DNA of 56,748 nt, the filler included, from Porpidia crustulata (Eukaryota), in assembly GCA_964255105.1 (NCBI GenBank). It is 3 parts of 3 records of this genome, joined end to end, with 100 filler letters (N's around TTAATTAATTAA, not from the genome) between each part and the next. Parts side by side here need not be neighbours in the genome. Positions count along the whole stretch, not along the records: positions 18,969 to 37,832 come from CAXUWE010000166.1; 2 more parts are not named here. One strand, 5' to 3'. Each line of letters opens with the position of its first letter. Within the stretch, counting starts at the first letter, position 1. The position numbers and the translations under genes were made by a program. Shown piece after piece: positions 26,167-31,192 of the stretch. Below the pieces are notes generated by a model that worked only from the letters and a program-made list of their open reading frames with translations, had not been told where the DNA came from and made no database searches.

Positions 26167-29100
26167 ATGGCACAGTCCGGAGTGATGAGCTGGCCTCATT
26201 CTCAATCTCTGAATGCCACGAGCGAGCAGAAGATGGGTGTAGAGGAGCAACTACTGCAAGATCTCCGGCGTAGAGATACGCAAACGCCTCCAAATGACGT
26301 GGTACGCTCTCCCAACTCTCTACAATTTTGATGCCTGCCCTATCAGTACGGCTTGATTGTTTCTTCAAACCCAAATTTTGCTCTAGTACCCAAGTTCTTG
26401 GTCTTTAGAGCTCAGGCGTGGGTAACAAATTGACTAACTTGAATTCTAGGCCTTCTGGGGCGAGACAGCTTCGGAAGTCGAAGGGATTTTACCTGATTAT
26501 CCCATCCCGTCCTTGGATGCTATCATCAATGAAGTCACAAGAGTATCTGGAATCCAGGATGGGATTCCCTCGAGGCAATTAGCTGGTTCTTTCTCAGCGA
26601 CAAAACCAGCACTTGCTCAAACATTCAGGAGCTTTGCCAGAAGTCTGAGTTCAGAATCTCGAGGTGCCAATTGGGCTACTCTTCGTTTCAAATCATTTCT
26701 CCTCTCACTTCGTGGGCCCTTGTCAGAATCAAGCTTATCTTGCGTCCTACCCTCTCCATTCAGAAACCAAAGCGCCGCAGCTGCCGCACTACTCAGAGGC
26801 CTTGCTGAAGTATTCACTGACCCAGCAGTCTTTCAATTTGTGGGGACAAATAAGGCCGGAAAGAAGTTCGAAGTCAAGCAGCTCACTGAGATGCTAGCTA
26901 CCACACGTACACCTCATGTCGGTTTAGATCAGCTCCAAACTGTTACCCTTTCACGTCACGTGATGGTTTGGTCCAAAGGTGTCGCCTTCAAAATCGACAT
27001 CGTTGATGCACAAAGACGTCCTATACCAGCCTCGGTTATCCTTAATCAGATCCAACAGATTCTCAATGACACCGCAGCGAAAAAAATTAGAGGGAGGAGT
27101 ATAGCATCACTCTCAACTTCCTCCACCAGAGATGCGTGGGCGAATATCCGCTCCGAAGTACTAGCCTCTGGGATCTCCCTCGAGGACTTGGAATCTTCGA
27201 TCAGTACAATCGCCCTTGAAGCCAGCGAAACCTTGGACATTTCAGAGCTCCTGAGGCTTGCTAAGGGGGATACTGGCAATGTATATTCCGATAAGACGTG
27301 TGGCTTCTCCGTGTTCACTAATGGGGCTTTGGCTGGCCGTGTTGATCACGCAGTAGCTGATGGAGGCGTCGTAGCAAGATTTATGGGTTTCCTAATCGAT
27401 GCTTACAAGAGGGTACCAGCTCGCTTAGAGGTCTCAGATTTGCTTTCATGTCTTCCTGTTGTTCCGATTGAGTTACCCAAATATCCTGTACCTTCGTTGG
27501 TACAGGAATATGCACCGCAACAAACTTTTACTAAACGCTCGGACATATTCGACATTCAGCATCCTGGTGACGTCCTGGAGATTTTGAGAAACTCCAAGAT
27601 GTACAATGTTACACTCCAGCTAGCCTTCCAAGCTGCACTCTTTTCTATTTCAGGTGATGCACCCCTCCTACTCGCAGAACCGACATCTGTTCGACAATTC
27701 GTAAATGGACGCTGTGATCCCAATTACGTGGTAACCAAGGAGTCATGTGCGTTCTGCGCAGGCTTGAAACAACAGAAACCGATGGATGAGCTTCTACCAC
27801 TATTGATGGCAAGCATCCAGCAGTACAAAAAGCAGCTTGTAGAAACGAAGAGTGGAGCTGGTATTGGACCAGGAATTGCGCTTCTCCGTGAAAGTGCGTC
27901 TCAACTAGAAGAGTCAGAAGACAAGGAGATTATCATTAGAACCCTCCTCAATTTCCAAAAGCCAGCTGCTTATTTCACAGGCGAGTCCTTGGTTCCCGCG
28001 GATCTCACCGCACAATCTGCCGTCTTTGCACCGGATCAGATCGCCATGACATACATGGGCCGTCCAGAAAAGATTTCTATGTGTCTAACAGGTTCCGGCA
28101 GGTTCTCAGATCTACTTCAGCCCCTGCGAGTAGCCTTTGAGGGGTCTCTCCAAGTCATTGGAGGCATGACCGCTACGTTAGCTACAATGGAGTCAATGTA
28201 TGCCGAGAAAGCATTGCCTACACTCATAGCATATGCGCACAAGAAGGATCAGGTTACGGAGAAAGGAGCCGTCGTTATACATGCTGGTGCTGGGGAATCG
28301 ATGGGCTACTCCCAACAGGAACGAACCTTGGTCGAGTTCATCCTCTCTGTCGTTGTATTTGACGCCCAACAAGCGCTGAAAGCTGGCTCTCGTGCTATTG
28401 ACGTAGCTCAGCAATGCGTGGTGGCCCTAGAGAATTGCGTCTTCTTCAATGCCGGCAAAGGGGCAGTCTTTAACTCAAAGGCCGAGCACGAACTAGAAGC
28501 TGTCGTGGTTGATGGGAGTACAGGCCGATCCGGTGCAGTCGCAAATTCAAAGCATACTCGGAATCCAATCTTGGCAGCCAGGAAAGTCCTTGACTCCTCT
28601 AATCACGCTTTCATTGCCGGAGCAGCTGCAGATGAATTAGCCACTACACACGGTCTTCAAATTGTGCCTAACACATATTTCTCTTCGTATGCGCGCCGAG
28701 CACAATTCGAAGCCGTTTCCGGAGGAATCCCCAATTTGAAGAAACACCCCCAAACTGTCGGTGCTATTGTCCTTGACTCTGAGAACCATCTTGCTGTTGC
28801 ATCGTCGACTGGAGGCGTCGTCAATAAAGCTGCTGGGAGGATTGGAGATACTGCCATTACTGGCTCTGGTGTCTTTGCGGACAGGCAGATTGCGGTGGCC
28901 TGCTCTGGCGAAGGTGATGCCTTTTTGCAGAAAAGCGTCGCAAGCCAGGTAGCTGGAATGGCTACATTTGGCTCAGTACCTGCGTCGAAGGCCGCTCGTA
29001 AAATCCTGAACGACCTTCAAAACCATTTCGAAGCGAGTGGTGGAATCATTTCGCTTGACGCTGAGGGGAATGTCGAAATTGAATCAACCTCGAAATCGTT

Positions 29101-31192
29101 CTTTGTAGCAGCAGCACCCAAGGACCAGCGACCATGGTCTCGCGTTGTTCCTTCGTCTACAGACCGCGATAATTCAGGAATTCAGGTTCACCTTGGGAAG
29201 CAGCAAGACAATAGTATATTCTATGAGGATAACAATATTATAGCTGCGCTGTCCTCAAGGCCTCTAACCTCTGGCGAGACATTAGTGCAAGTGAAAGGCG
29301 AAGCAAGTGTTCCAGGTCGAGCCGCATTAGATGAAAAACTCACATTTGTGAGCATAATGCGCTCACTGCGACACTGTGCCAGCGTTTTAAAGAAGGGCCT
29401 AGATACCCGTCGCATAGCATTGGTCTTTGATGAGAGTGTCAAATTAACACCTATGCATGGTCTTGACGATGATTGGGCTGCTATCACACATGCCGAAGAA
29501 GAGTTTCATCGCCATTACCCTGGGTATATCAGTTCCAAGAACGGTCCGAAGCAGTCGAACAGAGATCTAGATCACGTACGCCAAAGAGCTACCACAGTGG
29601 AACAGCCGGCTATGGACACGACATTCTTCGGATCTTCAGATGACGGCAGTTTATTTGCAAAGATTGTCCGGGGCGAATCAGAGCAATGGCGAATATGGGA
29701 AAATCCATCGCATGTTGCGTTCCTTACACCATGGGGCAATACCCCAGGATACACCGTTTTGGTCCCACGTACCCATCTATCGAGCGACATCTTCGACCTG
29801 CCGGATTCCGACTACCATGACCTCGCAGAAGCAATCTTCGAATGTTCGGCAGTCCTCAAACAAGCTTTGGGCGTGGATAGGGTGGGATTGATATTCGAAG
29901 GAATGGAAATCAATTACGCCCATGCCAAGTTGATCCCTATCCCACGAGAGCACATTCAATCTGGTATTGAAACAGAGGATTATTCAGACACCTATCGCGG
30001 CTTTGTCTCATCGAAGCAATGCTCATCAATCGCAGAGGCAAGTCATCTTGTATCTGCATCAAATGTGTTCAAATGGCTGACTGAAGTGCAGACTTCCGAT
30101 CTGCAAATTGTGCTGGCACAGATAAAGGAGAGAACTACGGATTTCAAAGCCGTGGAGCCACATCAATCGTGGAAGAAGCCTTCGACCCATTTTACAGAGG
30201 CTCTCAAGTCTTCGTGGTATCGAGATCTCTTTCACATAGTTGATGGCTTTTTCCACAGTACAATAAAATACTTCAATCAAGAGATTGGGTATAGCTATGC
30301 TCTGACGCCAGTAACCACCGATTGTATATCATCTCCTATGGGTCTAGGATCAGACTCGCTCCCTGTCAGTGTGGACCTTTTCAACGCCTCAACTTACCTC
30401 GCCGACTCCATGCAATTCACATTGGAGTATCTTCTACGATTCAACGACCGTGCCGCCGGCATGTATTATATTGCTCCCTCTTTCCGTGGGGAAGATCCCG
30501 ACGCCACACATCTCAACCAGTTCTTCCACGCTGAATGCGAGCTCCGAGGGACTATGGCAGACGCCATGAAGGTTGCTGAAGGCTATATTTACAGTGTTAC
30601 CAAAACTCTGTATGAGCAGCATGGAGACGTAATAAAAGAGATGGCCGGGACTCTTGATCACATTCATCAGCTACTGGATAATTTTGATGCACGTAAAGGT
30701 TTCCCGCGCGTCGCCAACGATGCAGCCATAGATATGGTCCCATCTCAGGACTGCTGGGAATACGTCGACGAGAAGGACGTCCAGCTTGGCAGGAAATTGA
30801 CTCGTGCTGGGGAGCGATTTCTGATTCAGAAATATGGTGGATTCGTTTGGCTAACAGAAATGGACCATCTCTCGGTTCCCTTCTATCAAGCCTACACCGA
30901 AGAGCATGGCAAGGAGAAAGCCAAGGCTGCTGATCTGCTCTTCGGCTTGGGAGAGACGCTCGGTCTTGGCGAACGGCACGCAACCGTACAAGAGGCCACT
31001 GACGCTTTAGACCATCATGAGATCCCCCATGACTCCTATCAATGGTATCTTGACATTCGAAAAGTTCAGCCGGTCAAAACCAGTGGGTGGGGGTTGGGGA
31101 GCGAGCGGTATCTCTGCTGGCTACTGCAGCATGATGATGTGAGGGATGTGCAGCTGCTACCGAGATTGAAGGGTTCCAAGTTTTTCCCATGA
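26167..31192 (+). CDS. Multidomain fusion enzyme: carnitine/choline acyltransferase-like + isoaspartyl peptidase/L-asparaginase (Ntn) + 2x HIT-like + AsnRS/AsnA-like catalytic domain
   Basis: Uninterrupted 1559-codon ORF 26513-31192. Predicted exon 1 is 26167-26301 with a phase-0 intron 26302-26449. Motifs: LPDYPIPSL and DHAVADG; VIHAGAG, FNAGKG, Q|TVGA, STGG, GRIGDT, SGEGD; FAKIVRGE..PGYTVLVPRTH..YAHAKLIP; YLADSMQF, SFRGE..HLNQFFHAECE, GWGLGSERY. Confidence 0.9.

Follow-up and report, generated by a model that had tools for sequence, protein, structure and literature searches.

AgnA, encoded on the agrocin 84 plasmid pAgK84, is described in the passages devoted to it (PMC8323819, PMC4392301) as a truncated homologue of asparaginyl-tRNA synthetase (AsnRS) without the anticodon domain; it is proposed there to form the pentanamide-AMP phosphoramidate bond, and the agrocin 84 pathway is presented as unproven. 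Microcin C, an aspartyl-adenylate mimic, is countered, according to excerpts from the work on it, by three immunity enzymes, the GNAT enzyme MccE2, the S66 peptidase MccF, and the HIT enzyme MccH, each of which disarms a different bond. The fish gene saiyan is reported, in the sections of the source that deal with it, as an iridophore marker of clownfish white skin that is expressed only in white (iridophore) skin (0 vs 4.7 transcripts per million) and that had 'no previous associated function' at its first description (PMC12918100). Here we describe a fusion gene that touches on all three systems. It lies at positions 26167-31192 (+ strand) of a 56,748-nucleotide stretch of DNA from Porpidia crustulata (assembly GCA_964255105.1), and this whole stretch, three parts of three records that are joined end to end and need not be neighbours in the genome, is called the window; the gene is in the part taken from CAXUWE010000166.1 (positions 18,969 to 37,832).

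The product of approximately 1,625 aa carries, in this order, a carnitine-acyltransferase-like domain, an N-terminal nucleophile (Ntn) isoaspartyl peptidase/asparaginase, two HIT domains, and a class II aminoacyl-tRNA synthetase (aaRS) core. The gene encodes a fungal member of a megaenzyme family conserved in fungi and animals, the fish member of which is saiyan. We give roughly an even chance (probability about 0.5) to the reading that the fusion enzyme makes or processes an aspartyl/asparaginyl-adenylate-type conjugate. This reading is based on the kinship of the core to AgnA over its full length, the agn gene set shared by the bacterial homologue loci, the recurrence of HIT, IadA, and GNAT analogues beside or fused to the core, the precedent of the MccE2/MccF/MccH immunity against an aspartyl-adenylate mimic as outlined in the excerpts on it, the invariance of the catalytic residues of four enzyme types from fungi to fish, and the sister group of the eukaryotic core clade, which includes the bacterial locus L002. 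That the substrate belongs to the aspartyl/asparaginyl-nucleotide conjugates is an inference, as is any statement on the sequence of the steps or on the balance between making and degrading the conjugate. The guess of the earlier note, which named an aminoacyl-nucleotide product or the detoxification of such compounds, gains support from the AgnA-type core and from its relatives in agrocin-84-like cassettes.

Gene structure and domain organization

The fusion gene consists of two exons. Its features are as follows; residue numbers in this text count along the exon 2 frame (e.g., His300 is encoded at 27347-27349).

26167..26301, + strand: exon 1, 45 codons (135 nt in frame), with the ATG at 26167
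26302..26449, + strand: putative intron, 148 nt, with a GTACGC donor, a CTAAC branch motif, and a TAG acceptor
26450..31192, + strand: exon 2, 1,580 codons plus the stop codon
26489..28093, + strand: carnitine/choline acyltransferase-like domain, PF00755 (4.8e-42), profile positions 58-556 of 574
28268..29128, + strand: Ntn isoaspartyl peptidase/L-asparaginase domain, PF01112 (2e-66), profile positions 2-302 of 309
29198..29599, + strand: HIT-like domain 1, fold from AlphaFold2/Foldseek, Ser at the nucleophile column
29651..30040, + strand: HIT-like domain 2, Y-A-H1158-A-K (His codon 29921-29923), then a Y-x-G-F-V-S-S tail
30170..31189, + strand: AgnA-type truncated AsnRS catalytic core (ASNA), PF00152 (3.9e-28), no OB-fold family

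The stop-free frame at 26450-31192 (+) is the longest frame of the 56.7-kb window, in agreement with the single frame of about 4.7 kb seen earlier, and the start then placed at 26167 is a conserved ATG that opens exon 1. In three related metagenome loci (79% protein identity), this ATG is kept and exon 1 contains no indels. The GT donor and the AG acceptor are conserved in all four sequences compared (the window and these three loci), and the length differences among the three aligned relatives fall only inside the proposed intron. The two-exon model is adopted because the ATG and splice sites are kept and the indels are confined to the intron in the three relatives.

The single transcript is deduced from sequence comparison, which leaves room for the view that the fusion is an artefact arising from a chimeric assembly or from chance read-through of neighbouring genes. 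The length of the open frame (1,580 codons) speaks against this view. A 12,347-nt contig of run X1, built by a different assembler, spans 25900-31316 with 0 differences from the window; run X1 is probably the window's own sample, so that this contig serves only to show the join to be independent of the assembler used. Independent support for the intact fusion frame is provided by ten metagenome loci at 79% identity, all of which keep the complete frame, and more than 100 database proteins of named species align over 99% of the fusion length. The chimeric assembly of which the earlier note had warned was dropped in view of the X1 contig and the ten related loci, and the artefact explanation, with a negligible probability, is refuted for practical purposes.

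The Pfam scan detected Carn_acyltransf at residues 73-548 (4.8e-42), Asparaginase_2 at residues 607-893 (2e-66), tRNA-synt_2 at residues 1265-1573 (3.9e-28), and HIT at residues 1075-1145 with a score just below the cut-off (5e-4; 21.1 bits against 21.5). The Pfam results, together with an AlphaFold2 model of the HIT pair, reproduce the architecture and order first read from the sequence, and the domain coordinates given at that time are correct within approximately 30 nt of the Pfam boundaries.

Catalytic residues were compared in an alignment of 16 full-length homologues from fungi (6) and animals (10). H300 and D304 of the acyltransferase, Thr769, R797, and D800 of the Ntn domain, H1158 of the second HIT domain (HIT2), and motifs 2 and 3 of the aaRS core are invariant in all 16 sequences. 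The catalytic residues of four enzyme types are thus invariant from fungi to fish. The key residues had been described as present in all domains other than the first HIT copy (HIT1); this was correct for the acyltransferase, Ntn, and aaRS domains, and HIT2 keeps only its central His.

Relationship of the synthetase core to AgnA

The core motifs SFRGE (motif 2), GLGERH, and GWGxGSER (motif 3) are conserved without exception in the 16 homologues. The Pfam scan of the fusion protein found neither PF01336 nor AsnRS_N, the families of an anticodon-binding domain, and the gap between HIT2 and the core is only approximately 45 residues; a true fungal AsnRS in locus L104 does show the PF01336 and AsnRS_N families. 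The core aligned with agnA of pAgK84 ('Agrocin84-synthetase') with 37.5% identity over 100% of 340 aa (5e-56), whereas the identity with canonical asnS was 24.9% (8e-11). The full-length match to agnA far exceeds that to asnS, and the core is of the AgnA type.

The best NCBIfam model for the core was NF005053, 'asparagine synthetase A', with 208.6 bits, below its cut-off of 322; the scores for NF005055 (AsnA; 187.4 bits, cut-off 389) and TIGR00457 (asnS; 115.4 bits, cut-off 342.6) were also below the cut-offs, and the same was true for every NCBIfam model of AsnRS, AspRS, and AsnA. The bacterial homologue P0235 likewise scored below the AsnA cut-off (244.4). Among solved structures, the core matched Pyrococcus horikoshii AsnRS (1x54, 8.6e-19) and archaeal AsnA (3p8t, 5.6e-8). 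A true AsnRS or a true AsnA was dropped as the identity of the core on account of these scores, and its first description as AsnRS/AsnA is replaced by the AgnA type. The core shares the class IIb fold with canonical AsnRS and archaeal AsnA and differs from them in the lack of the anticodon-binding domain and in the QSxQ-type motif, which reads DSMQ.

The fusion core and AgnA are both truncated AsnRS cores and have in common an N-terminal SW..P..H...WY extension. An exporter gene is present near agnA in pAgK84, as an ATP-binding cassette (ABC) transporter gene is near the fusion. The eukaryotic core shares its chain with HIT, Ntn, and acyltransferase domains, whereas AgnA is a stand-alone bacterial protein of 353 aa, and its neighbours (methyltransferases, a resistant LeuRS, and an MccF-like gene) have no counterpart beside the window fusion. 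The chemistry of AgnA is itself given as a proposal in the passages cited above.

Distribution of the fusion in fungi, animals, and bacteria

When 5.8 billion proteins were searched, 191 matches were obtained, of which the best 120 were considered for their domains. The acyltransferase, asparaginase, and aaRS families occur together in 114 of these 120 best full-length matches. The architecture is neither unknown nor specific to fungi. Full-length matches were found in the fungus Talaromyces rugulosus (49% identity) and the basidiomycete Amylocystis lapponica, and, among animals, in the brachiopod Lingula anatina, the scorpion Centruroides sculpturatus, the gar Lepisosteus, and dozens of teleosts. 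The end-to-end identity to the fusion was 36-50% overall, and 36-39% over 99% of the query beyond the closest fungi. In the ESM Atlas, two clusters (106 and 54 members) have the five-domain architecture. Shorter forms also exist: HIT-HIT-core in lichen fungi, Nemania, and Gaeumannomyces, and the core alone in many ascomycetes. Other forms are Ntn-HIT-HIT, acyltransferase-HIT (cAT-HIT), a HIT-GNAT fusion, and stand-alone HIT-HIT proteins, such as that of the yeast Priceomyces carsonii.

The teleost gene si:ch211-256m1.8, which is saiyan, has a domain order identical to that of the fusion, with 36-39% identity over 99% of the length, and falls in the same clade as the fusion in the core-domain trees. 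It differs in being an animal gene, and the His of the first HIT copy is kept in 5 of 10 animal sequences against 0 of 6 fungal sequences. No biochemical study of the fusion family or of saiyan was found in our literature searches; the earlier statement that no characterised protein has this architecture accordingly holds for biochemistry, and does not hold in so far as the fish orthologue is a named gene with an iridophore phenotype.

In the tree of the ASNA core, the eukaryotic sequences form one clade (SH-aLRT 100), and the bacterial group that is sister to all eukaryotes (support 94) is small and includes L002. In the core trees, a single branch (SH-aLRT 100) separates eukaryotes from bacteria, and the five-domain proteins form a clade within which the sequences of basidiomycetes, ascomycetes, and animals cluster approximately along taxonomic lines. 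An intronless full-length fusion of 1,607 aa (P0382) was found on a metagenome contig (L110:313-6347), and the named members of its cluster derive from metagenome-assembled genomes of Thioploca sp. and Candidatus Parabeggiatoa (Beggiatoaceae). The spacer in L110 holds a truncated radical-SAM-like open reading frame (ORF) and a palindromic repeat. The P0382 core nests inside the animal group (support 95, in a quick tree and on a long branch), and this position suggests that the fusion was transferred from an animal to giant sulfur bacteria.

Paralogues were noted among the metagenome loci L092-L099 and L101-L106. The assemblies holding the 79% relatives also hold a paralogue with the order Ntn-HIT-HIT-core, which lacks the acyltransferase and shows 40% identity. 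In a different set of samples, a canonical AsnRS gene is arranged head to head with such a paralogue in L104 (8094-9902) and L102, as well as in L101 and L106, which are of the same taxon, and in L105 (1-1230) an AsnRS with an identity of only 51% is found just upstream of the core gene. By analogy with agnB2 for agrocin 84, the AsnRS beside the core or paralogue could be a self-protection copy.

Bacterial homologues of the core

One genome per prokaryote species in GTDB was scanned, giving 284 relatives of the core, and the best 80 loci were analysed by calling ORFs, clustering them, and naming the clusters. The neighbour families were present in these loci as follows.

S66 peptidase: 36 of 80 loci
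S-adenosylmethionine (SAM) methyltransferase: 52 of 80 loci
ATP-grasp: 23 of 80 loci
A-PCP: 21 of 80 loci
P450: 20 of 80 loci
MFS or C39-ABC transporter: 28 of 80 loci
aaRS paralogue (IleRS, ProRS, PheRS, HisRS-like, AlaRS-like, ThrRS-like): 30 of 80 loci
None of these families: 6 of 80 loci

At least one of S66, HIT, GNAT, or IadA was present in 44 of the 80 loci. The S66 neighbour matched MccF (3gjz) with 1.6e-60 and the LdcA-type muramoyl-tetrapeptide carboxypeptidase 6uuk with 4.8e-23, and it is of the MccF type; an LdcA-type role in the cell wall was dropped because the MccF score is far stronger. The agn cluster contains agnA, a SAM methyltransferase, and the resistant LeuRS agnB2, followed by, among others, the MccF-like agnC5, and also a PhyH-type gene, a radical-SAM-like gene, and an ABC ATPase. 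The bacterial cassettes correspond to this agn-cluster gene set, and a cluster on a Xenorhabdus megaplasmid has the same set, with leuS.

Bacterial genomes connect this core, through operons or gene fusions, with enzymes that fill the same four chemical roles. In the L002 operon, a HIT gene (7823-8254) encodes HAHIK and a YPGYLS tail and matches the HIT2 profile with 8e-29; its product belongs to the same HIT subfamily as HIT2 of the fusion. In Pseudoalteromonas ostreae (L040:7064-13937), a tandem HIT-HIT gene, whose first copy reads H-x-H-x-Q, ends 1 nt before the core. RimL-like GNAT genes were found in four loci. On Pantoea agglomerans plasmids (six records; L128:8410-11233), GNAT and ASNA are fused into a protein of 531 aa, annotated merely as 'GNAT family N-acetyltransferase', and an MFS transporter gene follows directly; this pair is a two-gene bacterial counterpart of the acyltransferase/core/exporter theme. 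The isoaspartyl dipeptidase IadA directly follows the core in three Clostridia loci (369 bits, cut-off 331). Neither the acyltransferase nor the Ntn domain profile matched any of the 1,032 bacterial neighbour ORFs, so bacteria appear to use other folds (GNAT, S66, and IadA) in these two roles.

Several further observations were made at these loci. A homologue of Nif3-like/type 2 GTP cyclohydrolase I follows the core in L002, and in L040 the core is followed by a methyltransferase and then by a complete riboflavin operon (ribE, ribBA, ribH, and ribF); a purine or GTP link is possible for these neighbours. The Clostridia operon, which comes from metagenome-assembled genomes (L057, L063, and L064, approximately 7960-15900), consists of one or two core genes and IadA, followed by a 226-aa protein, a PurD-like ATP-grasp (285 bits, cut-off 288), unassigned genes, and a ThrRS-like fragment. 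Four neighbour clusters gave no match in Pfam or NCBIfam: c9, c13, c15, and c20 (in L022, L031, L041, L054, and others), with lengths of approximately 331, 200, 710, and 417 aa and occurrences in 10, 7, 7, and 6 loci, respectively. No paper on phosmidosine biosynthesis was among the matches listed in our literature search, the leads from nyuzenamide and epoxinnamide were discarded because the papers treat AsnRS as a drug target only, and a paper on tRNA deacylase had no bearing on the fusion or core family.

The bacterial neighbours recall the microcin C immunity enzymes. N-acylation, amide cleavage, and phosphoramidate cleavage, the chemistries given for MccE2, MccF, and MccH in the excerpts on them, are the three also expected of the fusion, and the bacterial core has MccF-type, HIT, and RimL-like GNAT genes among its neighbours. 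The fusion differs in that it uses a carnitine-acyltransferase fold instead of GNAT and an Ntn hydrolase instead of S66; the comparison is an analogy in which the HIT domain alone is homologous. In line with this resemblance, the fusion might serve in defence against bacterial antibiotics that, like agrocin 84 or microcin C, are aminoacyl-nucleotides, disarming them by N-acylation and by amide and phosphoramidate cleavage, with the core as a binding or decoy module. The three non-aaRS domains mirror the Mcc chemistries as far as the excerpts describe them, HIT-GNAT fusions exist, and MccF-type genes stand beside the core at the frequency listed above. We nevertheless judge such a defence to be decidedly unlikely: none of the ATP-binding motifs of the core varies, a conservation that simple binding would not require, the cassettes in which the bacterial core stands as the conserved first gene look biosynthetic, and the iridophore-specific expression in fish, as given in the sections on saiyan, does not suggest defence.

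Acyltransferase, hydrolase, and HIT domains

The catalytic-type His300 of the acyltransferase sits in D-H-A-V-A-D-G. The domain covers nearly the full PF00755 profile and has the catalytic His in the (E/D)HxxxDG motif, like the carnitine acyltransferases (CPT2, CrAT, and ChAT). It is very divergent from them: its best solved relatives are CPT2 (1e-14) and CrAT (1.3e-9). Carnitine-acyltransferase domains inside fungal polyketide synthases (PKSs) offer a parallel.

The Ntn domain matched the solved precursor of Escherichia coli EcAIII (2zak) with 1.7e-52 and human ASRGL1 with 6.8e-34. Its nucleophile, Thr769 (28754-28756), lies in HPQ-T-VGA, and the beta subunits in solved EcAIII structures begin exactly at the residue aligned to Thr769. 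HPQ-T-VGA and GRxGD (containing R797 and D800) are both invariant in the 16-homologue alignment. GRxGD holds the free aspartyl alpha groups, and its conservation suggests that the Ntn substrate has a free aspartyl head group. From its family, the domain is expected to cleave itself at Thr769; the megaenzyme would then split into an acyltransferase-alpha chain and a beta-HIT-HIT-core chain. EcAIII (IaaA) and ASRGL1 share with the domain the Thr nucleophile opening the beta subunit and the GRxGD motif, whereas they are stand-alone enzymes of approximately 320 aa and have Gly before the Thr nucleophile, where the embedded domain of the fusion has Gln.

The closeness of the Ntn domain to EcAIII and ASRGL1, which are housekeeping enzymes, would fit a role of the fusion in salvage or metabolite repair that yields no special product. 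The Ntn domain would then clear asparagine and isoaspartyl dipeptides, the core would remake asparagine from aspartate and ammonia, the HIT pair would mop up stray aminoacyl-adenylates, and the acyltransferase would have a side role. The core's best NCBIfam model ('asparagine synthetase A'), the downstream neighbours PIG-Y, BRAP2, and polyubiquitin, and the conservation of the gene across teleosts are in keeping with such a role. We consider it unlikely, since the core is far below the AsnA cut-offs (208.6 vs 322) and groups with the AgnA-type enzymes of antibiotic-like cassettes, asparagine made and cut on one chain would be futile, the distribution is patchy, with only the shorter forms in many fungi, and the expression in fish is confined to one cell type.

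The two HIT copies proposed from the sequence were confirmed by structure prediction. The AlphaFold2 model of residues 905-1245 contains two HIT-like half-barrels (mean pLDDT 84.9, pTM 0.85), and in Foldseek searches the single copy resembles HINT-type proteins (e.g., 3l7x, 1.8e-5) and the tandem resembles GalT-type uridylyltransferases (6k9z, TM-score 0.44 on the query). GalT-type uridylyltransferases are internal HIT duplications. HIT2 matched the solved HIT protein 7mqw with 4.7e-6, and its Y-A-H-A-K aligns with HLHVH of 7mqw and 3p0t. In the motif alignment, neither copy has the histidine triad H-x-H-x-H-x-x. HIT1 of the window protein reads E-S-V-K, without His, and a His is found at its nucleophile column in 5 of the 16 homologues, all of them animal sequences. 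In HIT2, the Lys, like the central His, is present in all 16. Of 140 library relatives, at least 63 carry the HIT2-type motif as YxHxK, at least 27 as HxHxK, and 6 as WxHxK. The motif thus departs from H-x-H-x-H of HINT; that of GalT is H-x-H-x-Q, a form that was seen in L040 and L055. A further difference from HINT and GalT is the conserved Y-x-G-Y/F-x-S-S tail after each HIT copy of the fusion (approximately residues 1026-1033 and 1182-1190), which resembles Y-P-G-Y-x-S-S-K-N-G-P and recurs in bacterial relatives with a single domain (the motif is matched by 23 of 52 short proteins from the library).

Proposed function

If the fusion makes or processes an aspartyl/asparaginyl-adenylate-type conjugate, the four domain types would address four handles of one scaffold, an aspartyl/asparaginyl unit joined to AMP. 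The core, as a tRNA-independent descendant of AsnRS of the AgnA type, would bind ATP and an aspartate- or asparagine-like (Asx-like) substrate and join the latter to AMP through an acyl-adenylate or N-acyl-phosphoramidate link. The HIT pair, with one putative active site (Y-x-H-x-K), would act on the phosphorus side of the conjugate, breaking or moving the P-N/P-O bond via an AMP-histidine intermediate. The Ntn hydrolase, as two associated chains after the self-cut at Thr769, would act on the beta-aspartyl C-N bond, and the acyltransferase would transfer an acyl group from acyl-CoA to a free amino or hydroxyl group. The ABC transporter would probably move the product.

A more specific version of this scheme is tentative, and we rate it as rather doubtful. 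In this version, fungi and animals inherited a bacterial P-N enzyme of the agrocin 84 type together with a HIT partner and built from them a megaenzyme that makes an aspartyl/asparaginyl-AMP phosphoramidate or releases adenosine 5'-phosphoramidate. The core would join the amide nitrogen of asparagine to AMP, the Ntn domain would then cut the beta-aspartyl bond, the HIT site would pass on or hydrolyse the AMP-N unit, and the acyltransferase would finally cap the amine. The metabolite would be required in the purine-crystal cells (iridophores) of fish and exported by the ABC pump in fungi, and the AsnRS beside the paralogous fusions (two divergent fungal contigs) would be a target or a self-protection gene.

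Several points weigh against the proposal that the fusion handles an aspartyl/asparaginyl-adenylate-type conjugate. A synthetase and hydrolases for one scaffold on one chain look futile, and futility is avoided only if the domains act in sequence or if one of them acts as a transferase. The activities are assigned to the family by sequence and analogy, and AgnA, the key relative, forms a very long branch (2.24) in the ASNA tree. In the bacterial survey, the core gene itself was not picked up by the ORF filter at 9 of the 80 loci, and a HIT gene was present in only 4 of the 80. The extra aaRS genes of the cassettes are of the Ile, Pro, Phe, His, Ala, Thr, and Leu types and never of the Asp/Asn type, which implies that the core family does not always handle Asx. 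Next to the window fusion, there is no methyltransferase, MccF-type gene, or extra aaRS. Finally, the conservation of the fusion in teleosts is nearly universal, which counts against an antibiotic; together with the iridophore expression, an internal metabolic role fits better.

Genomic neighbourhood in the window

The neighbouring genes referred to in this section are as follows.

8848-9943, + strand: 2-oxoglutarate (2OG)-Fe(II) dioxygenase, DIOX_N and 2OG-FeII_Oxy
10475-15661, + strand: multi-exon PKS-like gene with acyltransferase-like, HTH_51/C-methyltransferase, and Abhydrolase_3 pieces (11187-15661)
20039..24326 (upper boundary approximate), - strand: full-size ABC-B transporter, two ABC_membrane and two ABC_tran domains
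33281-34111, - strand: class II glutamine amidotransferase (GATase_4), two genes downstream of the fusion

The ABC-B gene is located upstream of the fusion and is divergently transcribed, and the order ABC, fusion, PIG-Y, and GATase is kept in nine related loci. An ABC half-transporter gene is also upstream of a fungal copy of the fusion in L090 (45% identical), and another is located 270 bp upstream of the Beggiatoaceae copy in L110, on the same strand. The ABC neighbour pointed out by the earlier note therefore recurs beside distant relatives, and it is the only neighbour to do so; it is possibly the partner exporter of the fusion. As for an agn-type context, the window fusion has only this exporter, whereas the bacterial homologues have the full set. 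The other domains of the fusion may stand in for the missing cassette genes.

Downstream of the fusion are PIG-Y, the class II glutamine amidotransferase, and housekeeping genes including BRAP2 and polyubiquitin. The GATase_4 gene keeps its position in each of the 10 related loci long enough to include it, and its product is 85-89% conserved in the relatives, compared with 79% for the fusion. No ketosynthase was detected in the ORFs of at least 70 aa of the PKS-like gene, and 19 of the 20 small ORFs between 8.8 and 25 kb gave no Pfam match. The flanks of the related loci extend only 10 kb upstream of the fusion, which is short of the PKS-like region.

The main idea of the earlier note, taken without a nucleotide, was a fungal secondary-metabolite assembly line. 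On this reading, the core would act like AsnA with an amine other than ammonia to form a beta-aspartyl amide, the acyltransferase would then acylate the amide, and the PKS-like and 2OG-oxygenase genes upstream would take part along with the ABC exporter. The dioxygenase and the PKS-like pieces (acyltransferase, C-methyltransferase, and hydrolase), the divergently transcribed ABC gene, and the beta-aspartyl peptidases that recur beside the core are compatible with this idea. It is very unlikely in our estimation, because the same fusion exists in animals and a bacterium without such a PKS context, the HIT pair would be left without a role, and none of these neighbours other than the ABC gene recurs in distant loci.

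Implications

The fusion is conserved from a bacterium to fish and has links both to a named gene and to agrocin-84-type chemistry. Far from being unique, it is already present in databases under bland names; fusion-type genes are probably outside the classes that standard cluster finders look for. The fusion is best filed as a eukaryotic, fused version of the AgnA-type aminoacyl-nucleotide systems. The AgnA family, so far treated as a curiosity of a single biocontrol plasmid and a small number of similar clusters, becomes a large family, with the 284 relatives in the species genomes scanned and further members in fungi, animals, and giant sulfur bacteria. The fungal orthologue, which has one intron and belongs to a cultivable microbe, gives a biochemical handle on saiyan. 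If N-acyl-phosphoramidate nucleotides are indeed made, the products would be strong mimics of activated amino acids, and both these compounds and enzymes for forming and cleaving P-N bonds would have a new source in the eukaryotic members.

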